In this document: one piece after another, positions 8,683-29,222 of the stretch | Layout of the letters: the number at the start of each line of letters is the position of its first letter | How positions within the stretch are numbered: position 1 is the first letter of the stretch | NCBI GenBank assembly: GCA_963839305.1 | Contig: CAWIUL010000011.1 | Span: 2,505,561 to 2,569,560, forward strand | Reading direction: 5' to 3' | Length of the DNA: 64,000 nucleotides | Origin: an uncultured delta proteobacterium | GTDB lineage: Bacteria; Myxococcota_A; Polyangia; Polyangiales; Polyangiaceae | Made by a program: the position numbers and the translations under genes | Notes under the pieces: model-generated | What the model saw: only the letters and a program-made list of their open reading frames with translations | Told to the model about the DNA's origin: nothing | The model's database searches: none

Positions 8683-8711
8683 TTGGCCATCATGATGCCA
8701 CGCCGCATAAG

Positions 8712-10016: not shown

Positions 10017-10019
10017 CAG

Positions 10020-10424
10020 TCAGCGTGGGCGGAAGAACCAGCGCTGATCGTGGTTGGTCGCTTGCGTGAGCCGCAGCCCGGCGCCGCAGTCCGCGTCCAA
10101 CGAGTCGTACGAAAAATGCTGACCGCGGAGCGTGAACGTCGTCGGCGAGATCCGCGCGGTCTCGAGCATCGCGTGCCCCGACATCGTCCCGCAGTCTGGC
10201 CTCCAGCGTTCGGGATCGCGTTCGCGCTCCAGCGTGAACGTGACGTGCTCCGCGCCGTCGGCGAGCGTGGCGGTCGCGTGACCGAGGTCGACCGTCAGCG
10301 TGATGCCGCTGAGCGTCGTCGGTTCGTTCAAGTCGTCGCTGACGTAATCGCCGTTCTGAAGCGGAACGCGGTGGACGCGCGTGCACGCGCTCGCGAGGAG
10401 GAGCAACGCCAGCGAGGAGCGCAT
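10020..10424 (-). CDS. Small lipoprotein, hypothetical
   Basis: MRSSLALLLLASAC lipobox signal from ATG at 10424. The stop abuts the ligD-pol stop, 3 nt apart and convergent. Confidence 0.5.
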   Translation of the reverse strand: MRSSLALLLLASACTRVHRVPLQNGDYVSDDLNEPTTLSGITLTVDLGHATATLADGAEHVTFTLERERDPERWRPDCGTMSGHAMLETARISPTTFTLRGQHFSYDSLDADCGAGLRLTQATNHDQRWFFRPR

Positions 10425-10544
10425 CAGTGACAAACCGTGGTGTCGTGAATCACGCACGTACCTGCCGTGACGAAGCCGGAATCGGCCGTCGACCCCACGT
10501 CGAAGCAGTCGGCAAACGTGTCGGCACGGTCTCGACGAGCCAAT

Positions 10545-11618: not shown

Positions 11619-11698
11619 GGGCGAATGTTAACCGATCGTGGTGCTCTCGCGCGGATGTTCAGGCCCGTGTGGAAGGAGCGTTGATGTAATCTGCCGCG

Positions 11699-13106: not shown

Positions 13107-14839
13107 CTCGCGCGCGCCGCGCGGTGCTCCTTGATCGCTTCGACCTTTTGCGCCGTGAGCACGTGCTCCTTGCCGAGCCACGCGCGCCGCGCGATGCCGA
13201 CGCCGTATTTCAGGTGCAAGAGCTCACGCACCGAGTGCGCGTCGGAGTCGATCACGACCGGCACACCAAGCTCACGGGCCATGCGCGCGCCGTTCTCGGG
13301 CACGTCGAGTCGCAAGGGAGAGCTGTTCAATTCGATCGCGACGCCGGTCTTCGCGAGCGCCGCGAGGATCACCTCGAGGTCGAGCTCGCTCGGCTCGCGC
13401 TGGCCGATCTGGCGCCCGAAGGGGTGACCTAGCGCGTCGATCTTGCCCGACTCGATCGCGCGCACGATGCGCTTGGTCATCTCCTCGCGCGGCATGCCGA
13501 GCTTCGAGTGAACGCTGCCGACGACCCAATCGAGCTTGCCGAGCTCGCCCTCGAGATCGAGCGAACCGTCGGCGAGGATGTCGGTCTCGAGCCCCGCGAG
13601 CACTCGGATCTTGCCCTTCATCTTCTCGTCGACCGCGCGAATGCGCTTCACGTGCGCGCGCAGGCGCTCGACCGTGACGCCGTTGGCGATCGTGAGCGAC
13701 GCGGAGTGATCGGTGATGGCGATGTACTTGCGGCCGGCGGCGAGCGCCGCCTTCGCCATCTCTTCGATCGACGCGCGCCCGTCGGTCTCGGTCGTGTGCA
13801 TGTGGAGATCGCCGATGAGGTCCGAGAGCTCGACGAGCTCGGGGAGCGTGCCGTTCTTCGCCGCCTCGATTTCGCCGCGGTTTTCCCGTAGCTCGGGGGC
13901 CATCCACTGGAGGCCGATCGCCTCGTAGACCTCCTCCTCGGTCTGGCCCGCGATCGATTTTTCTTTCTCGTCGAAGACTCCGTACTCGCTCACCTTGAGC
14001 TTCTTCTTCACGGCGATCGTGCGCATCGCCACGTTGTGCTCCTTCGAGCCCGTGAAGTACTGGAGCGCGGCGCCGAACGACGCGCGCGGCACGACGCGCA
14101 GATCGCACTGGATGCCGTTCTTCAGGATGACCGTGGTCTTCGTGTCGCCGCTCGCGAGGATCTCCGAGACCTCGGGGAGCGTCGAGAACGTCGTCATGAT
14201 CTTCGGCGCGTAGTCCGCGTCGGCCGCGACGAGCATGTCGATGTCGCCCACGGTCTCGCGCCGGCGCCGCAGGCTCCCGGCGAACTCGCACTGGAGCACA
14301 CCGGGCACCGCGCGGACCTTCGCGCAGAGGGCCTCTGCGAGCTCGAGCGCCTCGGCCATGAGCCAGCGCTTCGGCGCGGACGCGCGCTTCCTCCACGCGG
14401 CGATCGACGCGATGAGCTTCTCCTCGCGCTTCGCGCCGAAGCGCGGGAGGTCCGCGAGCTTGTGGTCCTTCGCGGCGGCCTCGAGCGCGTCGACGGTCGT
14501 GATGCCGCGCTCCTTCCACACTTGTTGCGCGGTCTTGATGCCGACGCCGGGCAAGTTCATGAGATCCATGAGGCCGGGCGGGAGCTTCGCGCGGTGCTCG
14601 TCGAGATCGGCGAGCTTGCCGGTCTCGATGAGCTCCTTCATGCGCCGGACGACGCCGTCCCCGATGCCGTGGGTCTTGCCGAGCGTGCCCGCCTTCACCT
14701 TCGCCGCGATCGGCTCGCCCATGCCCTCGATCGCGCGCGCCGCGGTGCGGAACGCCCGCACCTTGAACGGCACCTCACCGAGCAGCTCGAGCACGTCGGC
14801 CAGCTCGAGGAACGTGCGCGCGATGGTCTCGTTGTCCAC
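13103..14839 (-). CDS. polX: DNA polymerase X family protein with C-terminal PHP phosphoesterase domain (PolX)
   Basis: Intact 578 aa. N-terminal helix-hairpin-helix (ARTFLELADVLELLGEVPFKVRAFRTAARAIE). Pol-beta-like nucleotidyltransferase motif GSLRRRRETVGDIDMLV. PHP motif IGDLHMHTTETDG. Its stop overlaps the GH5 stop in a palindromic CTAG. Confidence 0.9.
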   Translation of the reverse strand: MDNETIARTFLELADVLELLGEVPFKVRAFRTAARAIEGMGEPIAAKVKAGTLGKTHGIGDGVVRRMKELIETGKLADLDEHRAKLPPGLMDLMNLPGVGIKTAQQVWKERGITTVDALEAAAKDHKLADLPRFGAKREEKLIASIAAWRKRASAPKRWLMAEALELAEALCAKVRAVPGVLQCEFAGSLRRRRETVGDIDMLVAADADYAPKIMTTFSTLPEVSEILASGDTKTTVILKNGIQCDLRVVPRASFGAALQYFTGSKEHNVAMRTIAVKKKLKVSEYGVFDEKEKSIAGQTEEEVYEAIGLQWMAPELRENRGEIEAAKNGTLPELVELSDLIGDLHMHTTETDGRASIEEMAKAALAAGRKYIAITDHSASLTIANGVTVERLRAHVKRIRAVDEKMKGKIRVLAGLETDILADGSLDLEGELGKLDWVVGSVHSKLGMPREEMTKRIVRAIESGKIDALGHPFGRQIGQREPSELDLEVILAALAKTGVAIELNSSPLRLDVPENGARMARELGVPVVIDSDAHSVRELLHLKYGVGIARRAWLGKEHVLTAQKVEAIKEHRAARAS

Positions 14840-16738: not shown

Positions 16739-17623
16739 ATGTCGCTCGCAAAGCGTTCGCCCATGCACAAGCTCACCAACGGCGAGGTCGAGGTCGTCGT
16801 CTCCACCGAGTTCGGGCCGCGAGTCCTCGAGTACCGTCGGCGCGGGGGAGAGAACGTCTTCGGCGTGCTCGCGAACGTCCCCGGCAAGCCAACGCCGTTT
16901 GGCGAGGAGTGGCACATCCGGGGTGGTCACCGCTTGTGGCACGCGCCCGAAGATGCGGTGCGCACGTACTGGCCCGACAACGACGCCGTGAAGGTGCGCG
17001 GCGGCGAGCGCGAGGCCACGTTCACCCAGCCCATCGAACGAAACACGCTCATCGAAAAAGAAATCTCGATCGAGCTCGGCGCGGGGTCGACCGTGCGGGT
17101 CACGCACCGCATGCGAAACCACGGGGCGTTCGAGGTGAAGCTCGCGCTCTGGGGGCTCTCGGTCATGCGCACGGGCGGGTTCGCGGTGATCGCGCAGCCG
17201 CCGTTCGCGCCGTTTCCGGAGGCGCTCGGCCCGGCGCGCCCGCTCGTCACCTGGTCGTACACGCGCATGAACGACCGCCGCTTCACGTGGGGCGACAGGT
17301 TCGTGCGCGTTCGGCAGGATCCCGCCGTCGGCGCGCCTCAGAAGATCGGCGTTTACGACGTGGTCGGCGCGGTCGGCTACGCGTCGCAGCGCGAGCTCTT
17401 CGTGAAGATGCACGAGCCGCTGCCGGGCGAGCACACGGACTTCGGGTGCAACGTGGAGGTCTTCGTGAACGACACGTTCCTCGAGCTCGAGACGCTCTCG
17501 CCGATGGTGCGCATCGCGCCCGGCGGGCAAGCGCAGCACGTCGAGGTGTGGAACATCTTGCCGCTCGCGGGCGAGGACGACGCGGCCATCGCCGACGCGT
17601 TCACTCACGTTCGAAGGACGTGA
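16739..17623 (+). CDS. Hypothetical protein
   Basis: Intact 294-aa ORF with non-repetitive composition. Convergent 19-nt overlap with the hydrolase gene. Confidence 0.5.
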   Translation: MSLAKRSPMHKLTNGEVEVVVSTEFGPRVLEYRRRGGENVFGVLANVPGKPTPFGEEWHIRGGHRLWHAPEDAVRTYWPDNDAVKVRGGEREATFTQPIERNTLIEKEISIELGAGSTVRVTHRMRNHGAFEVKLALWGLSVMRTGGFAVIAQPPFAPFPEALGPARPLVTWSYTRMNDRRFTWGDRFVRVRQDPAVGAPQKIGVYDVVGAVGYASQRELFVKMHEPLPGEHTDFGCNVEVFVNDTFLELETLSPMVRIAPGGQAQHVEVWNILPLAGEDDAAIADAFTHVRRT

Positions 17624-18303
17624 TCGAGCACGGCGCGCGCGACGTGCGCGGGCGCCTCGGCGGAGACGTCGTGACCGGCGCCGGGGATGATCACGGTGCG
17701 CGAGCGCGGGATACGCTCGAGCTCGCGCTGGGCCGAGCGCGGAATGACGCGATCGCGCTCGCCCGCGACGACCAGCGTGTCGGCGCCTATCCTCTCGAGC
17801 TCGCCGCGCGCGTCGTGACGGAGCGCAGCCGCGAGGAGCAGCGCGAGCGAGCGGCGCGACGTCGGCTGCGCGCGCGTGAGGAGGCGCAGCGCGGGCGCAA
17901 TCGAACGCGAGCGCGTGACGACGATCTTGGGCGCCGTCGACGCGAGCACGAGGCGTGCGACGCGCGCGGGTGAATCGATCGCGAGGCGCGTCGCGACCAT
18001 TCCGCCGAGCGAGATGCCGTAGACGTGAGCGCGCTTCACCGCGAGCGCGTCGAGGACCGCGGTCGCATCGGCGGCCATCGAGCGCGTTGTCGTGTTCCAG
18101 GGCGCGTCGCTCGATCGACCGGTGCCGCGCGCGTCGAACGCGATGACGCGCAGGTGCTCGGCGAGCGCGTCGGCGAACGTGGACCAGAGCGTCATCGCGC
18201 CGCCGAGCGGTCCGATGAGGAGGAGCGGCGGCGCGGCGCCCTCCGGGCCGCGGTCTTCGTACGCGATGCTCCCGCCGTCGCGGAGCGCGACGCGAGGCGT
18301 CAC
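17605..18303 (-). CDS. Alpha/beta hydrolase fold protein
   Basis: GTG start at 18303 (VTPRVALRDGGSIAYEDRGPEGAAPPLLLIGPLGG). Nucleophile elbow GISLGG. The start overlaps the upstream stop (GTGA). The N-terminal 58 codons in the ORF track are Arg-rich junk. Confidence 0.7.
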   Translation of the reverse strand: MTPRVALRDGGSIAYEDRGPEGAAPPLLLIGPLGGAMTLWSTFADALAEHLRVIAFDARGTGRSSDAPWNTTTRSMAADATAVLDALAVKRAHVYGISLGGMVATRLAIDSPARVARLVLASTAPKIVVTRSRSIAPALRLLTRAQPTSRRSLALLLAAALRHDARGELERIGADTLVVAGERDRVIPRSAQRELERIPRSRTVIIPGAGHDVSAEAPAHVARAVLDHVLRT

Positions 18304-19097
18304 CGGCTCGCCTCGCGCGCCATCGACGAGAGCGCCGACTGCATGCGCTCGCGAATTCGCTCGCGCGCGATTGCGGGGTCTTCGCCGTCCGCGACGCGCA
18401 CCGGCGGGAGCACGCGAAGGCTCACGCGAAATGGCAGCGGAAAATAGGGCGTCCACGGCCCGAGCGCGACACCCCACGGGAGCGCGAGCGCGATCGGGAA
18501 ACGTTCCACGCGCGCGAAGCGGTGCAGGCGAAGCGCCCGCGCGATGCGCTCGCCGTCGTCGATGATGAGCGCCGACCGGTGCGCGCCGTGCGCCACGATC
18601 GGGACGATGGGCACGCCCGCGCGCTGCGCGAGGCGAACGAATCCGGTGCGCTCGCCGAGCACGATCTCGTTTCGCCTTCGCGTGTGCCGATACGCCTCGA
18701 GGTCGCCGCCGGGATAGACGAGCACCTTCGCGCCCGATCGCAGCGCACGAAGCGCGGTCTCCGGGTGAGCACGAAGCGCCCCGAACCTTTGGAGCGCGCG
18801 GCCGAAGCTCGTCAGCTGGCGCATCGCGAAGTCGTGCGCGAGCGCGTAGACCGGCGCGCTCGGACCAAACGTCTCCCAGAGCGTGACGAGCAAGCAGAGC
18901 ACGTCGGGCCCCGCGATCCCTCCGTTGTGATTCGAGACGAGGAGCGCGGGCTCGCGCGACACCGCCTCGAGGTGCTCGAGCCCGTCGCGGCGAAGACGCC
19001 AGTAACGCGACGTGATCGTTCGCGCCGCCGGGAGCACGGCGTACACGGCGCGTTCGTCACGTGCGTCGAGGCGATCGGGATCGAACCTACGTGTCAT
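18300..19097 (-). CDS. Lysophospholipid acyltransferase (PlsC/LPLAT superfamily) protein
   Basis: ATG at 19097 (MTRRFDPDRL). Motifs NHNGGIAGPD, VLVYPGGDLEAYR, GVPIVPIVAHG. The start overlaps the stop of the upstream gene (ATGA). Confidence 0.7.
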   Translation of the reverse strand: MTRRFDPDRLDARDERAVYAVLPAARTITSRYWRLRRDGLEHLEAVSREPALLVSNHNGGIAGPDVLCLLVTLWETFGPSAPVYALAHDFAMRQLTSFGRALQRFGALRAHPETALRALRSGAKVLVYPGGDLEAYRHTRRRNEIVLGERTGFVRLAQRAGVPIVPIVAHGAHRSALIIDDGERIARALRLHRFARVERFPIALALPWGVALGPWTPYFPLPFRVSLRVLPPVRVADGEDPAIARERIRERMQSALSSMAREASR

Positions 19098-20347
19098 CGC
19101 GTCACGCAGCGCTGAACGGACCACGACGCGTACGCGAGCGCGAGCGTCGCCGGCTGCAAGCCGAACGACGTGCCGAGGAAGGTCTGTGCGTGCTCGGAGA
19201 GCCCAGGCCCGATCGCGAGGAAAAGCCCTAGCGCGAACGCGGCGACGCTCGTGCGCGCGTCGGTGAAATAGGTCTCGTCGCGCGCGAGCGGCTCGCGGCG
19301 AAGTCGGTGCTGGACGAGCATGAACGCAACGCAGACGAGCCCGGCATCGTAGTGGAACAAGTACGGCGAGAGGCACAGGCTGATCGGGATCACCGCGGCG
19401 AGCGAGAGATCCCAAGCGCGCGAAGCGATCTCGTCGCGACGCGCGGAGATCTTGAGGAGCCAAGCGAACGCGAACAGCGTGAGCGCCGCGCCGACGACCG
19501 TGCCGAGGAGCGGCGAGACCGCGTCGAACGTGTTCGTCCCGAGCCGGAAGAACCCGATCTGCGCCCAAGGGCGCGCCGACGCGCTGCGCGTCCACTCGAA
19601 CATCCGCGCCGAGACGTGCGCGTAGTGCCGCGCGGCCTCGGGAAACACGAGGAAGCTCGCGCCCGACACGAGGCTGCCCACGACCGCGGCCGCGACGACC
19701 GCGCGAAACCGGCGCTGGATCATCAAATACGCGACGAATCCCACGACGATCTGCGGCTTGATCGCGAGGAGGCCGAGCCACACGCCTGCGCTCACGTCGC
19801 GCGAGCGCCGGAGCGACACCACGAAGAGCACGAGCGGCACCGCGAGGAGCGCCGTCATCTGCGCGTACGCGATCGAGTACGCGACCGGCGCGAACCGCAC
19901 GACGAGCCAAAGCTCTTGCGACGGCGCCGCGTCCTTCAGCTCGCGCTCGGCGATCGCGCACGTCACGAGCCACAGCGCGATCGACAGCGCCCAGAAGACG
20001 ACGAGCGCCGCGCCGTACGGCAGCGCCGACAGCGGCGCGAAGAGAAGCGCCACGAGCGGCGGATGCATGAACGGCGTCTCCACCGCGCCCCCGCGAAAAA
20101 TCTCCTCGAGCCGATCGTAGAGGTGCGCGGACTGCCCGAGCCGAGCGAGCTCCCCCGCGTGATAGAACCCGCGAAAATCCCCGCCGACGTCGCCGTCCGC
20201 GAGCGCGTGCGGGTTCGCGACGAACCGCGCGAGCCCGATGACGAAGACCACCGCGAAGAACACGTTCGCCCACCGCGCGTTTCTCCGCACGGTCACGAGG
20301 CGCGCGACACGATCGACGAAGCGCTGCTCGAGGTCGCGGAGTGTCAC
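19094..20347 (-). CDS. Polytopic membrane protein, DUF2029 / GT87-like (polyprenol-phosphate-sugar dependent glycosyltransferase family, PimE/Aft-like)
   Basis: 417 aa with about 9-10 hydrophobic helices. An acidic/aromatic loop (GDVGGDFRGFYHAGELARLG) follows the first TM helix, as in GT87 proteins. Confidence 0.55.
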   Translation of the reverse strand: MTLRDLEQRFVDRVARLVTVRRNARWANVFFAVVFVIGLARFVANPHALADGDVGGDFRGFYHAGELARLGQSAHLYDRLEEIFRGGAVETPFMHPPLVALLFAPLSALPYGAALVVFWALSIALWLVTCAIAERELKDAAPSQELWLVVRFAPVAYSIAYAQMTALLAVPLVLFVVSLRRSRDVSAGVWLGLLAIKPQIVVGFVAYLMIQRRFRAVVAAAVVGSLVSGASFLVFPEAARHYAHVSARMFEWTRSASARPWAQIGFFRLGTNTFDAVSPLLGTVVGAALTLFAFAWLLKISARRDEIASRAWDLSLAAVIPISLCLSPYLFHYDAGLVCVAFMLVQHRLRREPLARDETYFTDARTSVAAFALGLFLAIGPGLSEHAQTFLGTSFGLQPATLALAYASWSVQRCVTR

Positions 20348-20623
20348 GGCCTCGATACGATACGCGAGTTACCGGCTTCCGAATCGACGCCGAGCTGAAT
20401 CGGCCCCGTCGAGCCTCAGCTGCGCAAGACCGACCTCGACGCGGTCGTGACGGACGCGACCGACGGCGGCTCGTTTGCGCGAAGAGGTCGCGCTCGAGTC
20501 CGCGATCGGCGAGGGACGCGCGTGACCTTGGACCTACCCCTCATGGGTGTCGCGGATTGATCCCACTGCCCGCGCGATCACGTCCGTGCGCTACAATGAC
20601 CGCATGCGGTTCGGGGCGGGCAC

Positions 20624-21043
20624 GTGATCCACTGGGGCGTGCGCTTGGCTCTTCTCGCTGTCGCGCTCGGCTGTGGCGGCGAGACGACGAGCGCGCCCGA
20701 TGCTTCGACTGACGCAACGACCGACGCGCACATCACCGACGCCATCAGCTTTGGTGACCTTTCCGTCGCGCCGTCGCCCGACGCGGCGCTCGTCGACGTC
20801 AACGTTCCGCTGGACGACGGCGGCGGTCTCTTCGCATGCGACAATTCCACGTGCGACGGCCGCACGCAGTATTGCGATACGTCATCCGTCGGCCCTCCAG
20901 GACCGGCCTACTGCGCTCCATTGCCCGACGGGTGCGTCCCTGCGAACTGCAATTGCCTCCCGAATGCCAACTGGGGCGCAGGCTGCTCGTGCGAGCACGC
21001 CGCTACGGGCGACGGTTTGATCGCCGGCTGTCAGGCCCCGTAG
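20624..21043 (+). CDS. Small Cys-rich lipoprotein, hypothetical
   Basis: Signal and lipobox VRLALLAVALGCGG. 11 Cys in the mature part (CDNSTCDGRTQYCD...CVPANCNCLPNANWGAGCSCEH). Confidence 0.5.
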   Translation: MIHWGVRLALLAVALGCGGETTSAPDASTDATTDAHITDAISFGDLSVAPSPDAALVDVNVPLDDGGGLFACDNSTCDGRTQYCDTSSVGPPGPAYCAPLPDGCVPANCNCLPNANWGAGCSCEHAATGDGLIAGCQAP

Positions 21044-21049
21044 CTCCCC

Positions 21050-21126
21050 TGGCGCGCCACAGAGGATTCGAACCTCTGACCTACGGCTCCGGAGGCCGTC
21101 GCTCTATCCAGCTGAGCTAGTGGCGC
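21050..21126 (-). tRNA. tRNA-Arg (anticodon CCG)
   Basis: Reverse complement GCGCCAC-TA-GCTCAGCTGGATAGAGC-G-ACGGC-CTCCGGA-GCCGT-AGGTC-AGAGGTTCGAATCCTCT-GTGGCGC-G-CCA. Cloverleaf with a 7-bp acceptor, CCG in loop positions 34-36, TTCGAAT T-loop and encoded CCA. Confidence 0.9.
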
Positions 21127-21179
21127 AGACGCGCGGACGATACCACGGACGCCGAAAAGCAGCCCGATCGGACACGCCT

Positions 21180-22601
21180 TCAGCGGAAGAATAGGCGCGC
21201 GAGCGTGCCCGTGTAGAGGACTCGGCCGCCGTGAGCGGCCATCCCGCGGTCGAGATCGCCGTGGGCCTTGCGCGCGACGAGGACGAGCTTCGCATCCGGG
21301 TAGAGCGATTCCCAACCGGGCTTCGCGAACGAGAACGTGCCCATCGCGCGCGCTTGCGCCGTGTCCAGGAGCTCGAAGCGAACGTCGAACTGCACGCGGC
21401 CGCGGAGCTCTGGCAGGTACCAGAGCGCCCAGTCCGCGAAGTAGTCGCTGATCGCCACGGTCGACTCGGGGTGGTCCGCGGCAGCCTTCGCAAGCACGGG
21501 GAGCACATCGCGCGGGTACTCGCGCTCCAGGCTGTCGTCGCTGATCGCGTACAGGCGCACCGCGAGCGCGAGGAACACGATCGGTCCCAGGTACCGCATC
21601 GCGCTCGCCACGCGCGCGAGCACGCGCCCCTCGCGAATCGCCGAGACCGAGTCGAGCATGCACGGCGCATAGGCCGCGATCGCGAGCCCGAACCACTGGA
21701 GGTGTCGGCTCGCTTGGAGCGGCGCGACCGCGGTGAGCGCGAGCACGAACGTCTCGAACGGCGCCGGACGGCGCTCCTTCTTCCAGTGCACGAAGGCGAG
21801 GAGCGCGACCGTGACGAGCGCGACGGCGAAATACGGAACGTCCGACGGCCAGTTGACGCGGTTCCACTCCTGGATCGGAAGCTCGCGCGCGGGGTCTTGA
21901 AGGCGGCCGATCTCGCGAAAATATCGGGGGAGCGCGAGCGCGTAAGGCGAGCACAATGGCGTCGGCGCCGCGAGCGCCCCGAGCAAGATCCCGCGGCCCG
22001 CGCGCCTTCCATCGCGCGCGCGAAGACCCTCGAGCACGTCGAACGCGCCGCGAAGGCCCACGAACAGCGCGCCCAAGATGACGACGCCGTGGAGATTCGC
22101 CCAGACGCACAATATCGGGATCGTCCAGAACACGCGCAGCGAGGGCCTTCGCGCGTCGGAGCCGAGGAGGACGAGCAGCGCCGCGAAGCCGACCAGCGAG
22201 AACATCTGCGGCCTCAGCGTGAAGAACGTGGCGCCGAGCGCGAAGCCGGCGACGCCGTAGACGAACGTCGCCGCGAGGCTCGCGCCGTTCTTCAGCGCGT
22301 GGCGCGCGCAGATCCCGAACGTCGCGCCCGTGACGAGCCCCTGCATCACGATCGCGAAGCGAAGACCCGCCGCGCGCTCGGCCAAGTAGATGAGGAGCTG
22401 CGCGAGCCACTGCTGATCCGTCCACGTCTTGCCGAGCGTGCCCGCGGTGAGCGCGTCGACGTGCGGGAGCCCATGAAGGGCGATCTCACGCCCGCAGACG
22501 AGCGCGAGCCACACGTCCGTCGAGAGGAAGCGCCACGGCTGAAAGACGATGAACGCGGCGGCGACGCTCGCGACGGACACCCAAGCCCATTTCACGTTCA
22601 C
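21180..22601 (-). CDS. Polytopic membrane protein, paralog A of a tandem pair (possible GT-C-like fold)
   Basis: GTG start near 22601 (VNVKWAWVSVASVAAAFIVF). Aligns along its length with the neighbour (LALVCGR..GLPH..D.L.A.T.GK.W.DQQWL.QL, WANLHG/WANVHA, FVPW..RRERPP.FE). The long 5' extension in the track is junk. Confidence 0.6.
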   Translation of the reverse strand: MNVKWAWVSVASVAAAFIVFQPWRFLSTDVWLALVCGREIALHGLPHVDALTAGTLGKTWTDQQWLAQLLIYLAERAAGLRFAIVMQGLVTGATFGICARHALKNGASLAATFVYGVAGFALGATFFTLRPQMFSLVGFAALLVLLGSDARRPSLRVFWTIPILCVWANLHGVVILGALFVGLRGAFDVLEGLRARDGRRAGRGILLGALAAPTPLCSPYALALPRYFREIGRLQDPARELPIQEWNRVNWPSDVPYFAVALVTVALLAFVHWKKERRPAPFETFVLALTAVAPLQASRHLQWFGLAIAAYAPCMLDSVSAIREGRVLARVASAMRYLGPIVFLALAVRLYAISDDSLEREYPRDVLPVLAKAAADHPESTVAISDYFADWALWYLPELRGRVQFDVRFELLDTAQARAMGTFSFAKPGWESLYPDAKLVLVARKAHGDLDRGMAAHGGRVLYTGTLARLFFR

Positions 22602-22615
22602 GCGAGGCGAGCGTA

Positions 22616-24001
22616 TCACCGCCGCACGAGCAGCGCGTCCGCACCTTCCCAGAGAACCTTCGCGCCCGGCTCCGCGCGTAGACCGCTCGCGAGCGCGGCG
22701 TGATCCTTCTTCGACACGAGCGCGATCGGCGCGTCCGGATAGAGCGCTCGAAAGCCCGGCCGCGCGAAGAGGAATCGCCCGAGATCGCGGGCCTGTTCGC
22801 GATCGAGGAGCTCGAGGCGCGAGTCGAGCTCGACGCGGCCCTCGAGCTCGGGCGCACGCCAGAGGACCCAATCGGCGAGGACGTCCGACGTGATGACGCG
22901 CGCCGCGGGCTCGGCGCCCATCGCGGCGCGGAGCGGCTCGAGCGCGCCGACGGGGTACATCCGCTCGAACCCTCCGCGAGGGATCAGCGCGAGACGAACG
23001 AGCCCCGCGAGGAGCACGACGGGCGCGAGCCGAACGACCCACGCGACCACGCGGATCTCGCGAGCCTGAATCGCCGGAACGCGCGCGAGGAGGAGCGGCG
23101 CGTACGCCGCGACGGCGATCCCGAACCACACCATGTGGCGCGCCGCGCGAAGCCCCGCGATCGCGCACGCGACGAGCACGATCGACTCGAACGCAGGCGG
23201 CCTTTCGCGCCGACGAATCCACGGCACGAAGACGAGACCGAGGACGAGCGCGACGATCCCGAACGTCACGAAGTCGTCCTTCGGCGGTAGCCACTCGATC
23301 ACCGGAAACTCGTGCGACGCTCCGAGGTGCGCGGCGTACGTCCTGAAATACGCGGGCATCTCGAGCGCGTAGGGCGTCGCGAACGGCGCCGCGACCGCGC
23401 CCGCGCAAAGGAGCGCGCCGCGCGCGAACCGCTTCTGCGCGAAATCGAACGCCGCGCGGAGCACGACCAGCCCCGAGCCGATCACGACGGCCGCGTGCAC
23501 GTTCGCCCAGAGCGCCAAGATCGGCCACACGAAATGCACGCGCTTACGAGGCGCGTCGAGATCGTCCCGCAAGAGAACGAGCAGCCCCGCGAACGCCACC
23601 ATCGAGAACGTCTGCGCGCGCAGGATCACGTAGCTCGAGTCGATGAGGATCATCCCGATCGCGCCGAGCAAGATCGCGTTCACCCCAGCGCCGCGTTTGT
23701 CGGCGAACCGCGCCGCGATCGCCGCCGCGGCGCCCACGACGAGCGCGTGCACACAGACGAGCAGCCACGGCCCGCCAAGACGCTCGACCGCCCAGAGCGC
23801 GAGCTGCCCGAGCCACTGCTGATCGACCCACGCCTTCCCCGCCGTCGCCGCCGCGAGCGAATCCCGATGCGGCAGCCCCTCGCGCGCGACGAGCCGCCCG
23901 CAGACGAGCGCCATGTACGCGTCGCTCCCCATGAGCTTGTAAGGCACGGCGAGCTCGGCAGCCCCGACCAACGCCCCCACGGCGAGCCACCGTTTCGTCA
24001 C
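22616..24001 (-). CDS. Polytopic membrane protein, paralog B of tandem pair
   Basis: 461-aa ORF from MTKRWLAVGALVGAAELAV. Roughly 35-40% identical by eye to paralog A, including the C-terminal soluble domain. Confidence 0.6.
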   Translation of the reverse strand: MTKRWLAVGALVGAAELAVPYKLMGSDAYMALVCGRLVAREGLPHRDSLAAATAGKAWVDQQWLGQLALWAVERLGGPWLLVCVHALVVGAAAAIAARFADKRGAGVNAILLGAIGMILIDSSYVILRAQTFSMVAFAGLLVLLRDDLDAPRKRVHFVWPILALWANVHAAVVIGSGLVVLRAAFDFAQKRFARGALLCAGAVAAPFATPYALEMPAYFRTYAAHLGASHEFPVIEWLPPKDDFVTFGIVALVLGLVFVPWIRRRERPPAFESIVLVACAIAGLRAARHMVWFGIAVAAYAPLLLARVPAIQAREIRVVAWVVRLAPVVLLAGLVRLALIPRGGFERMYPVGALEPLRAAMGAEPAARVITSDVLADWVLWRAPELEGRVELDSRLELLDREQARDLGRFLFARPGFRALYPDAPIALVSKKDHAALASGLRAEPGAKVLWEGADALLVRR

Positions 24002-24020: not shown

Positions 24021-24062
24021 AAAAGCAAGAACGCCAAAACCTCTTCGGTCTTGGCGTTCTCG
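24021..24062 (-). terminator. Rho-independent terminator downstream of dnaK
   Basis: On the minus strand, GAGAACGCCAA-gaccgaagaggtt-TTGGCGTTCT (10-bp perfect stem) is followed by TTGCTTTTGTG. It lies 20 nt after the dnaK stop. Confidence 0.7.
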
Positions 24063-24081
24063 CGCTCGAAGCTCACGGCTC

Positions 24082-26010
24082 CTACGCGTTCTCCTCGAAC
24101 TCCGCGTCGATGACTTGGCCTTCCTTCTTGCCTTCGCCACCGGCCTTGCCGTCGCCGTTCGGCGGGCCGCCGCCGTCACCGCTCGGAGGCGGCGGAGCGC
24201 CCGGACCACCTTGCTGCGCGCCGTACATGACGCTCGCCATCCGGTGCGCCTCTTTCTCGAGGCGCTCGCTGACGCTCGCCACCTTCTCGTCGTCCTGCTT
24301 CTCGACCGCCTCGCGCCCCTCCTTGATGAGGGCTTCGAGCGACGCGACGTCGGACGCCTGGAGCTTGTCTTTGTGCTCGGTGATCGTCTTTTCGAGCGTG
24401 TAGCAGAGGTTGTCGAGCTTGTTGCGGCGCTCGACCTGCTCGCGGCGCTCCTTGTCTTCCTTCTCGTGCTCGGCCGCTTCCTTCACCATCTTCTGGATCT
24501 CGGCCTCGTTGAGGCCCGAGTTCGCCGTGATCGTGATCTTCTGATCCTTGCCCGTCGCGGTGTCCTTCGCGTGGACCGAGAGGATGCCGTTCGCGTCGAT
24601 GTCGAACGCGACCTCGATCTTCGGCACGCCGCGCGGCGCCGGCATGATCCCCTCGAGGTGGAACTTGCCGAGTGTGCGGTTGTAACGCGCCTCGGTGCGC
24701 TCGCCCTGAAGGACGTGCACCTCGACGCTCGGTTGCGAGTCGGTCGCCGTCGAGAAGATCTCCTTCTTCTGCGACGGGATCGTCGTGTTGCGCGGGATCA
24801 TGACGGTCATGACGCCGCCGAGCGTCTCGACGCCGAGCGAGAGCGGCGTGACGTCGAGGAGGACCATGTCCTTCACGTCGCCGCTGAGGACGCCGGCCTG
24901 GACCGCCGCGCCGACCGCCACGACCTCGTCCGGGTTCACGCCCTGGTGCGGGTCCTTGCCGAAGAACTTCTTCACCGTCTCTTTGACGAGCGGGATGCGC
25001 GTCGAGCCGCCGACGAGGACGACCTCGGCGATGTCCTTCGCGCTCTTCTTCGAGTCCTGCAGAGCCTTCTTCGTCGGCTCCATCGTCCGCTCGATGAGCT
25101 GACCCATCATCTGCTCGAGCTTGCTGCGCGACAGGCGCATGTCGAGGTGGACCGGGCCGCCGGGGCCGACCGTGATGAACGGCAGATTGATGCCGGTCTC
25201 CTGGACGCTCGAGAGCTCGATCTTCGCCTTCTCCGCGGCTTCCTTCAGGCGCTGGAGGGCCATCTTGTCCTTCGCGAGGTCGATGCCCTGGGCCTTCTTG
25301 AACTCCGCGATGAGCCAGTCGATGACGAGGTTGTCGATGTCGTCACCGCCGAGGTGCGTGTCGCCGTTGGTCGAGATGACCTGCACGACGTTGTCGCCGA
25401 CCTCGAGGATCGAGATGTCGAACGTGCCGCCGCCGAAGTCGTAGACCGCGATGATCTCGTCCTTCTTCTTGTCGAGGCCGTACGCGAGCGCGGCCGCGGT
25501 CGGCTCGTTCACGATGCGCTTCACCTCGAGGCCCGCGATGCGGCCGGCGTCTTTCGTCGCCTGGCGCTGCGCGTCGTTGAAGTACGCCGGGACCGTGATG
25601 ACGGCCTCGCTGACCTTCTCGCCGAGGTAGTCCTCAGCGGCCTTCTTGAGCTTCTGGAGCACCTTCGCGCTCACCTCTTGAGGCGACATCGGCTTGCCGC
25701 GGACGTCGAAGGCACAGTCGCCGTTCGACGCGCGCACGACCTTGTAAGGCACGCGCTTGGTCTCTTCGCCGATCTCTTCGAAGCGGCGTCCGATGAAGCG
25801 CTTCGCGGAGTAGATCGTGTTCTCCGGGTTGGTGACAGCCTGGCGCTTGGCGATTTGGCCGACGAGAACCTCACCCTTGTCGTCCCATGCAACGACGCTC
25901 GGCGTGATGCGCGAGCCCTCTTCGTTGACGATGACCTTGGGCTCTCGTCCCTCCATGATCGCCACGACGCTGTTCGTCGTTCCGAGGTCGATGCCGATGA
26001 TCTTGCCCAT
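24082..26010 (-). CDS. dnaK: Molecular chaperone DnaK (Hsp70)
   Basis: [37 protein letters not shown]. 642 aa, intact. Confidence 0.97.
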
Positions 26011-26242: not shown

Positions 26243-27466
26243 ATGGCAAGGCAGAAGGACAACCTGCCGGCCCCTCCGGAGCTCCCCTCGTTCCGTGTGG
26301 AGCCGAGCGATGACGAACGAGAGCTCCGGACCAAGAGCGTCGCCGAAAGGCACGCTCAAACCGGTCTCGTCCGCCATGACGCATTCCTCGAAGAAGCGTC
26401 GATCGATCCCGACGCGGCGAAGGTCGTGCGTCGCCTCGAGCGCCACGGCTTCCAGGCGTACCTCGTCGGCGGTTGCATCCGCGATCTCCTCCTCGGCGGG
26501 CGGCCCAAGGACTTCGACATCGCGACGAGCGCCCGCCCCGAGGACGTCCGCGCGCTCTTCCGCAACTGCCGCGTCATCGGCCGCCGCTTCCGCCTCGCCC
26601 ACGTGCTCTTCGGCGGCGGCAAGGTGATCGAGGTCGCGACCTTCCGGAAGAACCCGCAGGAGCTCGAAGAAGAAGAAGCAGACCTCCTCATCCGGAGCGA
26701 CAACGTCTTCGGCGAGGCGCACGAGGACGCGATCCGCCGCGACTTCACGATCAACGCGCTCTTCTACGATCTCGAGCGCCGCCAGGTGCTCGACTGGTGC
26801 GGCGGCATGGAGGACATCGCCAAGCGGACGATCCGCACGATCGGCGAGCCCTCGGTGCGCTTCCGCGAAGACCCGGTGCGCATCCTCCGCGCGATCAAGT
26901 TCGCCGCGCGCCTCGATCTCGGCATCGAGCACAACGTCTACGACGCGATGATCTCGCACCGAGACGATCTCGCGCGCGCCGCGCGTCCGCGCGTCTTCGA
27001 GGAGGTCCTGCGCCTGCTCCGCCACGGCTGCGCGCACCGCGCGATGTGGATCATGTGGGAGTCGGGCGTCATGGCCGTGCTCATGCCGGAGCTCGCCGCG
27101 TTCCTCGACGACGAAGAGTCGCACCCCGAGGCCGTCTCGCGCTTCTGGCGCCAGCTCGACGCGCTCGATCGCACCACGCACGCGCGCGGCCCCATCGACG
27201 ACGTCGTCCTCATGACGACGCTCTTCTACGAGCCGATCCAGGAAGCCATGGCCGACTCGCGCGACCGCATGCGCGCCGCGTCGGACTTCCTCGTGCCGAT
27301 CTCCGAGCGCATCGCGCTCCCGCGTCGCATCCAAGACGGCATGCGCCGCATCCTCGCGCTCGTGCCGCGCCTCCGCGCGGGTCGCACGCCTCGCGCGGGC
27401 CGCAACGGCGAGATCATGACGCTCGCCTCGCGCGTCCTGGAGCTCACGCGGCCGATGGATGCCTGA
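26243..27466 (+). CDS. pcnB: Poly(A) polymerase I / tRNA nucleotidyltransferase family (PcnB-like)
   Basis: Start MARQKDNLPAPPE. Motifs GGCIRDLLLGGRPKDFDIAT, RRDFTINALFYD, PcnB-type RILRAIKFAARL. Confidence 0.8.
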   Translation: MARQKDNLPAPPELPSFRVEPSDDERELRTKSVAERHAQTGLVRHDAFLEEASIDPDAAKVVRRLERHGFQAYLVGGCIRDLLLGGRPKDFDIATSARPEDVRALFRNCRVIGRRFRLAHVLFGGGKVIEVATFRKNPQELEEEEADLLIRSDNVFGEAHEDAIRRDFTINALFYDLERRQVLDWCGGMEDIAKRTIRTIGEPSVRFREDPVRILRAIKFAARLDLGIEHNVYDAMISHRDDLARAARPRVFEEVLRLLRHGCAHRAMWIMWESGVMAVLMPELAAFLDDEESHPEAVSRFWRQLDALDRTTHARGPIDDVVLMTTLFYEPIQEAMADSRDRMRAASDFLVPISERIALPRRIQDGMRRILALVPRLRAGRTPRAGRNGEIMTLASRVLELTRPMDA

Positions 27467-29222
27467 GACCGATCGCGCGCCGCCGACCATCGATTCAGCG
27501 GCGGCGGCGGCGCATGTCGTAGCGGCCGTATCCGTTCCCGAGATCGCGTCCTCGTGGTCTCTCGGCGCGCTCCGCCGTGCGCTCCGTTGGGCGCTCTCCA
27601 AGCCAAGCGCCGGCGAGCGCGTGGACTGGCTGCGACGTGCTGCCGAGCGACGCCTCACCACCACGGACGTGCGCGCGACGTCGTGGTCCGCGGTGCTCGA
27701 TGACGTCGGACGTGGCGACGCTGCGGCTCGCGCGGCGGCGCTCGCGGCCGCCGCGGTCGATTTCTACGACGAGCTCGAGCGGCCCGACTGCCCGGCACGC
27801 CTTCGAGAGCAATGCGCGACCATCTTCGGGACCACGCTCGTTCCACGCGCCGAGGCCTACGAGAAGCGCCACGGCGCGAGCGCTCACGTCCTCGTCGGCG
27901 CCGCAGGCGCGCTCTGGGTGGTCGCGGTGCGAGACGACGCGGGCAACGCTCGTCACCCGGACGACCTCGCCGAAGATTTTCGCGCGTGCCTCTCGCACGA
28001 GGGCTCGGAGGATCACGTGCTCCGCGTCACGAGCCTCCGGCGGAGCGAGTCCGCGCCGCTCTGGACCAAGCTCGAAGCGGACGCCGAGTCCGCGGCTGCG
28101 CTGAGCGGCGCGCTCTTTTCGGTCTTCTTCGACGCCAGCGCGCCCACGTCGGTCGACGCGTGCGGCGCGCTCGCCCAAGCGGCGGCGCCGAGCAATCGCT
28201 GTCACTGGCACGCCCTTCAAATCGTCGCGTTTCGAAACGCGCGCGTCGCGCTCGTCGGCAACTTCACCGCCGGGGTCGAGGGCGAGGCCGCGTTCGAGCT
28301 GTGCAAGCGACTCTTGGCCGGAATGTCGGCGCGGCGCGAGCGCCGCAAGACCACCGCGCGACCGCCCGCGCGCCTCGAGTGGAAGCTCGACGACGAGACG
28401 CGGGCAGCGCTCGCGTCGACCCGCGATCGCGGCGTCGTCGACGCGGGCGGATTCGTCCGCGTGCCCGGCTTCGGCCACGCGCGCTGGAAGGAGCTCGACG
28501 TCTCACCCGAGGGCGCCACGGTCCTCGCGCTGCGCCTCGCGCTCGCGCGCGCCGGCGCGAAGCTCGACGCCATCGACTGCATGGTGAACATCGCGCACTT
28601 CGAGGAAGGGATCGCCACGCGCCTCAACACGGCCACCGCCGACGCGATGACATTCGTCGAGCTCGCGGACTCCTCGCCCGAGTCGGCGGAGTGCGCCGAG
28701 GCCGTCCGTGCCGCGCTCGACGCGCACCGCGCGCTCGTCCGTGAAGCGAAGCAGTTGTCCAGCGCCGAGCAGATGCTCCACTTCGCGATCCAGCGCCTAC
28801 GGCGCCTCGGCGCCCTCACGCGGCTCGTCGTCCGCCTCGCGGTCATTTGGGTCCTTTGGAGCGTCGTTCGCGTCGCCGACGATCCGCAACGGCGTCCGTG
28901 GGTCGCGCTCGACTCGAGCGTTCGTCACGTGCGTGGCGTCGCTGCGATTGGCCGTTTCGGGCTCTTCGCGCCGCCTCACACGCTCTGGGTTCACCACATG
29001 ATCGGCGAAGACGAGACGCGCCTCGTGATCCAGTCGAGCCGCGAGCAGCTCGTGAGCGCAAAGAAGCTCCAAAAGCTGATGCCCGCTGCGTTCGAGTCGA
29101 TCGCCGTCGCGGCCGCAAGACGAGCGAGCGCCTCACGCAGCGCGAGCCCCGCGCCCGTCGCGCCCGTCATCGCGGTCGGCCGCTTGAGAGGTTTGCTCAG
29201 TGCGGTCGCGGGCGCATCGTGA
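27459..29222 (+). CDS. Hypothetical protein (587 aa)
   Basis: Intact ORF, translationally coupled to pcnB (ATG 27459 overlaps TGA 27464..27466). No family confidently recognised. Confidence 0.5.
   Translation: MPETDRAPPTIDSAAAAAHVVAAVSVPEIASSWSLGALRRALRWALSKPSAGERVDWLRRAAERRLTTTDVRATSWSAVLDDVGRGDAAARAAALAAAAVDFYDELERPDCPARLREQCATIFGTTLVPRAEAYEKRHGASAHVLVGAAGALWVVAVRDDAGNARHPDDLAEDFRACLSHEGSEDHVLRVTSLRRSESAPLWTKLEADAESAAALSGALFSVFFDASAPTSVDACGALAQAAAPSNRCHWHALQIVAFRNARVALVGNFTAGVEGEAAFELCKRLLAGMSARRERRKTTARPPARLEWKLDDETRAALASTRDRGVVDAGGFVRVPGFGHARWKELDVSPEGATVLALRLALARAGAKLDAIDCMVNIAHFEEGIATRLNTATADAMTFVELADSSPESAECAEAVRAALDAHRALVREAKQLSSAEQMLHFAIQRLRRLGALTRLVVRLAVIWVLWSVVRVADDPQRRPWVALDSSVRHVRGVAAIGRFGLFAPPHTLWVHHMIGEDETRLVIQSSREQLVSAKKLQKLMPAAFESIAVAAARRASASRSASPAPVAPVIAVGRLRGLLSAVAGAS

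Follow-up and report, generated by a model that had tools for sequence, protein, structure and literature searches.

Membrane glycosyltransferases of the GT-C_A class (ArnT, STT3-PglB-AglB, DPY19, PMT, and AftA-AftB) combine an N-terminal polytopic module with a soluble C-terminal domain; acidic residues of their first extracytoplasmic loop are conserved. PimE, a GT87 enzyme of the Corynebacteriales PIM/LM/LAM pathway, acts on glycolipids or lipoglycans, with D58 and Y62 as its catalytic residues (PMC12041525). Three-component extracytoplasmic glycosylation systems (PMC11127046) consist of a GtrA-type flippase, a GtrB-type polyprenyl-phosphate GT2 enzyme, and a GT-C transferase. The locus described here lies in a window of 64,000 nucleotides from an uncultured member of the Polyangiaceae, a diderm Myxococcota host, and the three minus-strand genes, tRNA-Arg, tandem paralogs, and dnaK listed in the initial annotation were all found in place.

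On the minus strand, dnaK (24082-26010, recognised from its translation) is followed by a terminator-like hairpin of 17 pairs and a T-run (24025-24063), which ends 23 bp before the start codon of parB (22616-24001). The tandem paralog parA (21180-22601) begins with a GTG at 22601, read from the sequence, 14 bp past the parB stop. A tRNA-Arg(CCG) gene (21050-21126, minus strand; ARAGORN, Rfam tRNA 67 bits) and a small plus-strand ORF (20624-21043) separate the paralogs from the GT87 gene (19094-20347, minus strand, 417 aa) by ~830 bp in total. The paralogs had been placed immediately upstream of the three remaining genes; in the sense of an operon they are not, as the tRNA and the opposite-strand gene intervene. 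The ORF encodes a putative lipoprotein whose N-terminus resembles a lipobox (LAVALG|C) and whose C-terminus is rich in Cys, without a match in Pfam or NCBIfam. It is missing at the equivalent position in relatives, and in a relative of at least 90% identity a SnoaL-like gene occupies its slot; the slot is variable and the gene stands outside the conserved set.

The proteins of parA and parB share 43% identity (E 3e-99). Neither matched Pfam or NCBIfam, and their family profile did not match PDB sequences, in agreement with the earlier view that they belong to no described sequence family. The GT-C-like topology proposed for them was supported by an AlphaFold2 model (pLDDT 90.5), for which the best 14 Foldseek matches were all GT-C proteins (TMq 0.46-0.61, probability at least 0.98). 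On this evidence, parA and parB are members of a large unannotated GT-C-fold family resembling ArnT, STT3, and DPY19. Searches recovered 27,381 representatives of 50% clusters when E<=1e-3 was allowed, and 3,711 with the limit at E<=1e-30; the family is commonest in Thermoleophilia (Actinomycetota), and every named member is a "hypothetical protein". We read the parB model as 11 TM helices with the N-terminus inside and a periplasmic C-terminal soluble domain; a crude hydropathy scan revealed 8 strongly hydrophobic segments. The conserved acidic residues of the family include some in the first extracytoplasmic loop, as in the GT-C_A enzymes. In contrast to these enzymes, the paralogs show no detectable sequence relationship to ArnT, STT3, DPY19, PMT, or AftA-AftB (7-14% identity in structural alignments), are smaller than most at ~460 aa, and carry motifs of their own (W-x-D-Q-Q-W-L, W-A-N-x-H-G, D-W, and D-x-R).

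The GT87 protein matched PF09594 with 94 bits (cutoff 25). Direct phmmer searching did not match it to PimE; a profile of its orthologs together with Thermoleophilia GT87s, to which it has ~20% identity, matched PimE 9dm5 with E 3.2e-17. The invariant D57 and Y62 align with the catalytic D58 and Y62 of PimE, K197 lies near the position of PimE K195, and an aromatic-His motif lies near W319/H321-322. This alignment shows D57, the equivalent of D58, as the putative catalytic Asp. The enzyme differs from PimE in its diderm host and in its conserved partners, which are the new GT-C family rather than known LM/LAM enzymes.

Gene order in relatives links these three genes. Three Polyangiaceae loci (L081, L082, and L084) have the order dnaK-parB-parA-GT87-tRNA-Arg, the P0181 contig has dnaK-paralog-GT87, and L087 and L088 have parA-GT87-tRNA-Arg. 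The parA and GT87 genes overlap by 4 bp in L081, L082, L084, and the P0181 contig; the parA orthologs preceding GT87 share 68-70% identity with the window parA, and the GT87 orthologs following parA share 66-69% with the window GT87. The tRNA-Arg(CCG) lies directly after GT87 in L081, L082, L084, L087, and L088, whereas in the window it lies between parA and GT87, which marks a rearrangement. The parA orthologs are thus directly coupled to GT87 in relatives, and the paralogs have in GT87 a conserved partner that is displaced in this genome. In every locus of the Polyangiaceae type dnaK is conserved as an anchor upstream of the GT-C genes; a family gene comes directly after it in L001-L003, L081-L084, and the P0181 contig. 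Among 77 non-Polyangiaceae loci, mostly from the single class Thermoleophilia and not phylogenetically independent in their adjacency counts, a full-length GT87 was present within 4 kb of a family member in 44 and within 300 bp in 25, with recurrent tight linkage to 1-3 GT87 genes. No GT87 was adjacent to the family gene in L002, L083, and the other 33 of the 77 loci, and the partnership is frequent rather than obligatory.

The acyltransferase gene (18300-19097, minus strand, 265 aa) encodes a PlsC-fold, LPLAT/DGAT2-like protein, soluble or peripheral, which matched PF01553 (49.2 bits, cutoff 23) and DAGAT PF03982 (E 1.3e-7). Its AlphaFold2 model (pLDDT 82) retrieved PlsC 5kym as the top Foldseek match (E 1e-5), followed by PatA 5f2z (E 1.7e-4) and GPAT, and its relatives are annotated as 1-acyl-sn-glycerol-3-phosphate acyltransferase or lysophospholipid acyltransferase family proteins. 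It departs from PlsC in scoring 18.4 bits against the TIGR00530 cutoff of 102.95, in placing its invariant His in N-H-N-G-G-x-x-G-P-D rather than the canonical H-x4-D, in having no TM segment detected, and in always being paired with an alpha/beta hydrolase. The hydrolase (17605-18303, minus strand, 232 aa), an alpha/beta-fold serine hydrolase (Abhydrolase_1, E 2.8e-28), carries GxSxG at residues 96-100; its best NCBIfam matches (PcaD-type enol-lactonase and esterases) were all far under their cutoffs, and the crude hydropathy scan gave no strongly hydrophobic segment for it either. The plus-strand gene at 16739-17623, a TTE1925-type mutarotase-like gene (NF052227, E 2.6e-64, below its cutoff), converges on the hydrolase gene with a 19 bp overlap; it converges on the pair likewise in L083 and the P0170 contig and is a conserved neighbour.

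The hydrolase directly follows the acyltransferase in 6/6 contexts, with the 4-bp overlap seen in relatives as in the window. GT87 precedes the acyltransferase in one of the six, the window itself, and not in the closest acyltransferase relative (93% identity). Read from the other side, seven related contexts allow the gene downstream of GT87 to be read, and in none of them is it the acyltransferase; the junction is missing even in the relative that shares a parB cluster of at least 90% identity with the window. The three-gene block of the initial annotation, for which such an outcome had been named as refuting, is therefore not conserved. More than 1,800 acyltransferase homologs were found. 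Of their 90%-identity clusters, >120 lie at >=62% identity, whereas parB has about 14 at >=48%. At least tenfold wider in distribution than the close relatives of the paralogs, the pair appears to occur in many genomes that lack the GT-C set. The acyltransferase and hydrolase are an independently conserved, widespread Polyangiaceae gene pair. We consider it probable that two separate conserved units, the three GT-C glycosyltransferases and the independent acyltransferase-hydrolase pair, were joined in this lineage; of the single five-gene module proposed before, the linkage of paralogs and GT87 is supported and the membership of the pair is not.

A role of the paralogs and GT87 as protein glycosyltransferases (OST/PMT/DPY19-like) for secreted or envelope proteins appears unlikely. 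It draws on Thermoleophilia, where about half of the loci have the family gene and GT87 bordering a tad pilus locus (CpaB/E/F, TadB/C/E), and Tad/Flp pilus components could be the target. The Polyangiaceae family genes, in the window and the relatives examined, have no neighbouring tad locus, and the WWDYG-type OST motif is absent from the family. ArnT, which acts on a lipid, and AftA/AftB, which act on polysaccharides, scored alike against the paralogs; the GT-C fold is itself uninformative on the acceptor. To our knowledge, every characterised GT87 enzyme, PimE among them, uses glycolipid or lipoglycan acceptors, which also speaks against protein targets.

The PIM/LM-like logic of the initial annotation would place all five proteins in one acylated envelope glycolipid or lipoglycan pathway, the acyltransferase acylating a lipid anchor or sugar, the hydrolase trimming or remodelling, and the GT-C enzymes extending in the periplasm. 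The ATGA overlap of acyltransferase and GT87 (19097..19094, minus-strand reading) and the GTGA overlap of hydrolase and acyltransferase (18303..18300, likewise) are exact and make a three-gene operon probable here. Yet at least five further same-strand gene pairs of the window overlap by 4 bp, so the overlaps are a sign of an operon and not of the "obligatory" co-translation read from them. The pair lies 3-8 kb from the GT-C genes in L083, the P0181 contig, and probably L084, a proximity accounted for by a conserved chromosomal backbone (LigD, ligase, GH5, PolX ... dnaK, CCA-adding enzyme). In the closest relative, the acyltransferase gene adjoins a sugar cluster of GT4, epimerase, and radical-SAM genes. 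The likeness to the PIM acyltransferase PatA is at superfamily-fold level, with PlsC scoring better, and the scanned ORFs of the window included no PimA/PimB-type, PatA-family, or inositol genes. With the relatives' gene order and the abundance of the acyltransferase also against it, this pathway, which depends on a lineage-specific GT87-acyltransferase junction within a syntenic backbone, is improbable.

ArnT-like modification of lipid A or LPS core by the paralogs, in which one sugar would be added, independently of GT87, to serve envelope charge or resistance to antimicrobial peptides, is very improbable: no ArnT/PMT_2 Pfam or NCBIfam signal appeared in 20 family members tested, the ORFs scanned contained no arnABCD-type genes, the family is commonest in Thermoleophilia, which lack LPS, and its tandem duplication and linkage with 1-3 GT87 genes suggest multi-step glycan assembly. 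Despite their polytopic topology and lack of a recognised enzyme family, the paralogs can hardly be transporters or non-enzymatic scaffolds, the kind of unrelated family the initial annotation had allowed for, since Foldseek transporter matches reached a TM-score of ~0.1 and probability <=0.12, the invariant acidic and polar residues cluster in loops on the predicted periplasmic face (AlphaFold2 helices, our reading), and one family member is fused to GtrA and encoded next to a GT2.

In that member, P0038 (loci L090-L092), a GtrA/DPMS_TM domain (E 4e-24) forms the N-terminal part; it is flanked by a second family paralog and a 265-aa GT2 whose best NCBIfam matches are dolichyl-, undecaprenyl-, and polyprenyl-phosphate sugar synthases. 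With a GtrA domain fused to GT-C and an adjacent GT2, its locus resembles the three-component systems (PMC11127046), and it supports a lipid-linked sugar as the putative donor. Unlike those systems, the window and the Polyangiaceae relatives examined have no adjacent GtrA/GtrB-like gene, and neither GtrA nor a polyprenyl-phosphate sugar synthase was among the window ORFs scanned; the donor-producing genes, if they exist, would lie elsewhere in the genome.

Under the two-unit reading, the acyltransferase, cytoplasmic or peripheral, and the hydrolase would act independently of the glycosyltransferases, probably in lipid acyl-chain remodelling (de-acylation and re-acylation). In this genome GT87 appears to have been relocated across the tRNA-Arg, abutting the acyltransferase through the ATGA overlap, and GT87, acyltransferase, and hydrolase are probably co-transcribed; the coupling is recent and no conserved design. 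The literature search turned up no published account of the GT-C/GT87 set in Myxococcota; the initial annotation had called acylated glycolipid or lipoglycan biosynthesis uncharacterised in this phylum. By analogy with characterised GT-C enzymes, we infer that parB, parA, and GT87, downstream of dnaK, would each use a polyprenyl-phosphate-sugar as donor on the periplasmic side of the inner membrane, with a conserved Asp of the first periplasmic loop (D57 in GT87; candidates D27, D47, or D60 in the paralogs) as catalytic base, and pass the sugar to an envelope acceptor. The three most likely act sequentially, building or decorating one membrane-anchored or secreted glycan. All characterised GT87 enzymes known to us are polyprenyl-phosphate-mannose-dependent mannosyltransferases, and our best guess for the product is therefore a mannose-containing glycolipid or lipoglycan-type polymer. 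The parA, parB, and GT87 genes form a genuine set, so far uncharacterised, of three GT-C enzymes predicted to glycosylate in the periplasm.

Genes in the region, which has approximately 70% G+C content, were selected on the basis of codon-position G+C together with homology. Spurious long ORFs were abundant on both strands. Antisense ORFs of 360–860 aa over real genes, typical of DNA with 70% G+C, were rejected, as was a 464-aa ORF at 21031–22425 on the minus strand, which reads straight through the tRNA-Arg gene. On the minus strand, dnaK (24082–26010) is followed by two tandem membrane protein genes, parB (22616–24001) and parA (21180–22601, with a GTG start 14 bp past the parB stop), and by tRNA-Arg(CCG) (21050–21126), which was the sole match of the Rfam scan. 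A small gene for a putative Cys-rich lipoprotein (20624–21043) lies on the plus strand, beyond which the minus strand carries a membrane glycosyltransferase gene (GT87, 19094–20347), an acyltransferase gene (18300–19097) and an alpha/beta hydrolase gene (17605–18303). The plus-strand mutarotase-like gene (16739–17623) is convergent with the hydrolase gene, and the two share a 19-bp 3' overlap (17605–17623); the same convergent overlap of hydrolase and TTE1925-type mutarotase-like genes was seen in the Polyangiaceae locus L083 (19988–20006) and on the contig of the search-derived protein P0170. On the plus strand beyond dnaK, a gene at 27459–29222 overlaps the end of the CCA-adding/PolyA_pol gene; its 587-aa product contains the choline/carnitine O-acyltransferase domain (PF00755, E 7e-31), which is probably uncommon in bacteria.

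The initial annotation had assigned the three minus-strand genes beyond the lipoprotein gene to a GT87 glycosyltransferase, an acyltransferase and a hydrolase, and Pfam upheld these assignments. GT87 reached 94.0 bits against PF09594 (cutoff 25; E 1.5e-26) with the full 237-position profile covered, the acyltransferase reached 49.2 bits against PF01553 (cutoff 23) and also matched DAGAT (PF03982), and the hydrolase matched Abhydrolase_1 at E 2.8e-28. The ATGA and GTGA overlaps linking the three genes were exactly as first described; their reading as a special coupling could not be sustained, as at least five further same-strand gene pairs in the window have 4-bp overlaps. Such overlaps are evidence for an operon and nothing unusual. 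The three genes have their own upstream intergenic region (20348–20623) and are probably co-transcribed in the window organism. A strong terminator-like hairpin (24025–24063, minus strand; 17-bp stem plus T-run) directly follows dnaK and ends 23 bp ahead of the parB start codon, so that expression of parB and parA would need read-through or an internal promoter of their own. No promoter was matched in a scan of the sigma-70 type only, which matches few sites even in shuffled sequence.

The parA and parB proteins gave no Pfam or NCBIfam match, and the family profile retrieved no PDB sequence at E ≤ 10. Twenty family members scanned singly showed no consistent Pfam match even at E ≤ 5; among ten other family proteins, seven were without a Pfam match and three matched unrelated or fused domains only. 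The two proteins thus stand, as proposed, as real tandem homologs (43% identical, E 3e-99) of no recognisable sequence family. A crude hydropathy scan found parB to be polytopic with eight strongly hydrophobic segments, and both proteins have the GT-C architecture of an N-terminal TM module, juxtamembrane helices and a variable C-terminal module or soluble domain. The guess of a GT-C-like topology proved right when the AF2 fold was compared with known structures. The top 14 Foldseek matches were STT3, ArnT, DPY19, AftA, AglB and PglB (TMq 0.46–0.61), and comparison with known GT-C enzymes scored 15.6 for DPY19, 15.1 for STT3B, 14.2 for ALG12, 13.6 for both Pmt4 and AglB, 13.4 for PglB, 12.3 for AftB and 9.5 for PimE. 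A transporter identity, which the initial annotation had raised against its own proposal, was rejected on fold, transporters appearing in Foldseek only at TM of about 0.1. The paralogs are not divergent GT87s either, as their profile, compared with that of GT87 by hhalign, gave a probability of 1%.

The AF2 helices and charged loops fit a predicted topology of 11 TM segments, N-in, with a C-terminal periplasmic alpha/beta domain. The segment from TM1 to TM2 contains the invariant D47 together with D27 and D60, each at least 90% conserved; these are candidates for the catalytic acidic residue of the first extracytoplasmic loop, as in ArnT, PglB or PimE. The conserved residues of the family comprise D27, D47, D60-Q-Q-W, W165xN167xH169, P210-Y211, E236-W237, R288, D377-W378 and D393xR395, all of which would lie on the periplasmic side in the modelled topology, as expected of a GT-C active site.

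A word-indexed search yielded just 21 relatives of the family; when 1.84 billion cluster representatives were searched exhaustively by profile, 27,381 clusters at 50% identity matched at E ≤ 1e-3, of which 3,711 reached E ≤ 1e-30. The names given by the sources were all "hypothetical protein", bar one GtrA-fusion label. In a collection of species-representative genomes, at least 517 loci encode family relatives. The best 80 of these comprised three Polyangiaceae/"delta proteobacterium" MAGs, one member of Gemmatimonadales, and otherwise Actinomycetota, mostly Thermoleophilia (Gaiellales and Solirubrobacterales). In 13 of the 80, the family gene is duplicated in tandem, as it is in the window.

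Two members have additional domains. P0028 (570 aa) has RTX calcium-binding nonapeptide repeats at its C-terminus (PF00353, E 6.7e-15), which is unusual for a GT-C protein, and P0038 (612 aa), a distant member, carries an N-terminal GtrA/DPMS_TM domain (E 4e-24). In the contigs L090–L092, P0038 is flanked by a 265-aa GT2 and a second family paralog of 518 aa (cassette at 2845–7066 in L090, likewise in L091 and L092), the GT2 gene being convergent and overlapping. The best NCBIfam matches of this GT2, all below cutoff, were Dol-P-hexose, Und-P-Ara4FN and polyprenyl-P-GalNAc synthases. The arrangement corresponds to the classical three-component system of flippase, polyprenyl-P-sugar synthase and GT-C transferase (compare PMC11127046). 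The family as such thus has support for this logic, but the window locus does not show the arrangement; no adjacent GtrB-like polyprenyl-P GT2 or GtrA flippase was detected in the surroundings of the window genes or in the relatives L081–L084. The GtrA fusion and the GT2 neighbour are the best, if indirect, evidence that the family may use lipid-phosphate-linked sugars.

Neither GT87 nor the acyltransferase retrieved a PDB sequence by phmmer, and GT87 was later matched by profile. The profile built from Polyangiaceae orthologs and Thermoleophilia GT87s matched the PimE structure 9dm5 (E 3.2e-17), its D-F-R...Y segment aligning on D58...Y62 of PimE. The catalytic base of PimE is D58, which sits at the tip of its first juxtamembrane helix and is hydrogen-bonded to Y62; the substitutions D58A/N and Y62A abolish activity (PMC12041525). 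D57 of the window GT87 was invariant in 18 of 18 sequences and Y62 is present. K197 is at most one alignment column away from the conserved Lys that coordinates phosphate in PimE (K195). In the region of PimE W319 and H321/H322, the window protein reads S-P-Y-L-F-H-Y and the Thermoleophilia GT87s S-P-x-V-W-x-H-Y; the window protein thus has an aromatic residue and a His there, but one residue out of register, so that these and K197 are tentative counterparts. The PF09594 score, the PimE profile match and D57/Y62 together make GT87 membership solid, and from the family the donor would be polyprenyl-P-mannose.

Gene order was compared in Polyangiaceae relatives gathered at 62–65% parB identity. 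L081, L082 and L084 shared the order dnaK – parB – parA – GT87 – tRNA-Arg(CCG), with a 4-bp overlap of parA and GT87 and with GT87 proteins 66–69% identical to that of the window. The order parA – GT87 – tRNA-Arg was also found in the metagenome contigs L087 and L088. A scan of metagenomes with GT87 itself returned three loci only. On the 99.8-kb contig of the family member P0181, dnaK is followed by one paralog and GT87 with a 4-bp overlap, and then by LysR, SDR, DUF4202, acyltransferase, hydrolase and PolX. In L083, dnaK – parB – parA is followed by a divergent third paralog, which is encoded on the opposite strand and replaces GT87, and about 6 kb further by SDR – DUF4202 – acyltransferase – hydrolase – mutarotase. 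This third paralog (12772–14211, minus strand; 479 aa) shows about 28–33% identity. P0290 clusters with parB at ≥90% identity, and its contig shows parB – parA, a gap, an opposite-strand SnoaL gene and GT87, after which comes an unrelated 559-aa protein and not the acyltransferase. Upstream of the closest relative of the acyltransferase, which comes from the same sample and is 93% identical, lies a divergent epimerase/radical-SAM/GT4 cluster, and downstream lie, as in the window, the hydrolase, mutarotase-like and beta-propeller genes; in L086 the acyltransferase and hydrolase are paired and GT87 is missing from the surrounding 8 kb. A parA ortholog directly preceded GT87 in all six readable contexts at the 62–69% identity level, and the hydrolase followed the acyltransferase in 6/6. 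Two further observations were made in these loci. In L081, L083 and L084, at about 1900–4400, an unusually long Lgt fusion of about 800–840 aa with a PEMT-like region is encoded ahead of the CCA-adding enzyme and dnaK, near an ABC ATPase and a membrane protein that contains PAP2. In L003, a more distant "delta proteobacterium" MAG, a GT87-like ORF at 8889–9974 (HMM E 2.8e-10; 31% identical to the window GT87 over 111 aa, on a frameshifted contig) lies between dnaK and a single paralog, in reversed order relative to the other relatives.

The window neighbourhood lies on the same syntenic backbone as the P0181 contig, which runs from LigD Prim-Pol, ATP-dependent ligase, GH5, PolX, beta-propeller and mutarotase genes through the hydrolase and acyltransferase to the GT-C genes, dnaK and the CCA-adding enzyme. 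The first part of this backbone is a DNA-repair cluster in the window (8616–14839), consisting of the LigD primase-polymerase (8616–10016), an ATP-dependent DNA ligase (10545–11618) and PolX with a PHP domain (13103–14839), with a GH5 cellulase gene (11699–13432) interleaved. The cargo between tRNA-Arg and the acyltransferase varied: L081 has MarR and RND-pump genes, L082 has ferritin-like, DsbA and LysR genes, L083 has MFS and LysR genes, and L084 has an RND pump. In the window lineage, GT87 lies beyond tRNA-Arg and a variable small opposite-strand gene, a step common to the ≥90%-identity relative, and in the window, though not in that relative, GT87 directly abuts the acyltransferase. A search for tRNA-fragment direct repeats or scars around tRNA-Arg yielded GC-rich chance repeats only.

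The pairing of the family with GT87 recurred outside Polyangiaceae. A tblastn search of 80 genome loci with the window GT87 found nothing and alone would wrongly suggest no linkage; ORF clustering and HMM search revealed neighbouring GT87s that are divergent. Clustering of neighbouring ORFs gave one cluster at a median 8.5 bp from the family gene, which was GT87 (PF09594, E 9.5e-16) with only about 20% identity to the window protein. By HMM, full-length GT87 was present in 44 of the 77 non-Polyangiaceae loci among the best 80 of at least 517, in each case no more than 4 kb from the family gene; because of the phylogenetic clustering of these loci, the counts do not represent independent events. 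In 25 loci, GT87 lay within 300 bp of the family gene (15 convergent, 9 same strand, 1 divergent), and two to three GT87 copies per locus were frequent. Even so, that the pairing recurs in two phyla and in different gene orders speaks for a functional link between the family and GT87. In roughly half of the Thermoleophilia loci, among L004–L080, the family gene and one to three GT87 genes border a tad/Flp pilus locus on one side (TadE, CpaB, CpaE, CpaF, TadB/C and prepilin-peptidase-like genes; for example L005 13224–19837, L045 2482–8406 and L016 13186–16953). This adjacency could be either plain synteny or a hint of pilus/envelope protein glycosylation.

The acyltransferase-hydrolase pair has a different distribution. 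Acyltransferase homologs exceeded 1,800, with more than 120 90%-identity clusters at ≥62% identity, against about 14 clusters at ≥48% identity for parB, so that the pair seems to occur in many genomes that lack the GT-C set. The best Foldseek match of the acyltransferase model (pLDDT 82) was PlsC 5kym (E 9.6e-6, TM 0.53–0.57), followed by PatA and GPAT; the modelled likeness to PatA is at superfamily level. Unlike PlsC, the protein scored 18.4 bits against TIGR00530 (AGP_acyltrn; cutoff 102.95), and instead of the canonical H-x4-D it has an invariant N56-H57-N58-G-G-x-x-G63-P64-D65 with H-x7-D spacing. It belongs to the LPLAT superfamily, though not demonstrably to PlsC itself. Its R-x-G-F-x-R-x-A-x-x-x-G-x-P-I-V-P segment may resemble the DGAT2/MGAT motif, which would fit the PF03982 match. 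The hydrolase has a GxSxG nucleophile elbow, and its NCBIfam matches were generic and below cutoff (PcaD-like lactonases and esterases). A crude hydropathy scan detected no TM segments in either protein. The pair may form a lipid/ester acyl-remodelling unit.

The five genes had been proposed to form an acylated glycolipid pathway with PIM/LM-like logic. In this particular organism, where GT87, acyltransferase and hydrolase are probably co-transcribed, such a pathway could still operate; however, the three-gene block is not conserved, the acyltransferase following GT87 in none of the seven related contexts with a readable downstream gene and GT87 preceding it in the window only. Pfam scanning of 29 window ORFs detected no cytoplasmic GT-B mannosyltransferase (PimA/PimB'), PatA-family (PF03279) acyltransferase or phosphatidylinositol genes. 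The pathway lacks comparative support, and the start/stop overlap with the acyltransferase and hydrolase genes in one genome cannot be taken as evidence that an acylated-glycolipid pathway is conserved. What is conserved as a functional unit is parB/parA together with GT87. A literature search on GT87/DUF2029 or GT-C enzymes in myxobacteria found nothing relevant.

Most likely, the three GT-C enzymes parB, parA and GT87 would make sequential periplasmic glycosyl transfers from polyprenyl-phosphate sugars to an envelope acceptor, which may be a glycolipid/lipoglycan, a protein or LPS; the fold does not tell which. A mannose-containing glycolipid or glycan would be the favoured product because of the GT87 partnership and the multiple GT87 copies in Thermoleophilia. 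A bolder reading appears rather unlikely as a whole, namely that parA/parB found a new GT-C family (a candidate CAZy family with thousands of members) of obligate GT87 partners building an unknown polyprenyl-phosphate-mannose-dependent envelope glycoconjugate. If it held, the product in this diderm lineage of Polyangiaceae could be a lipoglycan resembling lipomannan, perhaps acquired from the actinomycetotal class Thermoleophilia, where the pair beside tad loci might glycosylate pilus/envelope components. The locus itself combines a new sequence family, which falls within a well-known superfamily of enzymes, with an ordinary gene pair of lipid metabolism, and is no new type of system. GT-C enzymes make major glycoconjugates of the envelope, among them LPS modifications, N-/O-glycoproteins, arabinogalactan and LAM, and new families usually mean new glycans. 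The pairing with GT87 in two phyla makes parB, parA and GT87 a concrete, testable set for an unknown periplasmic glycosylation product, relevant to both myxobacteria and Thermoleophilia and of moderate interest to glycobiologists.
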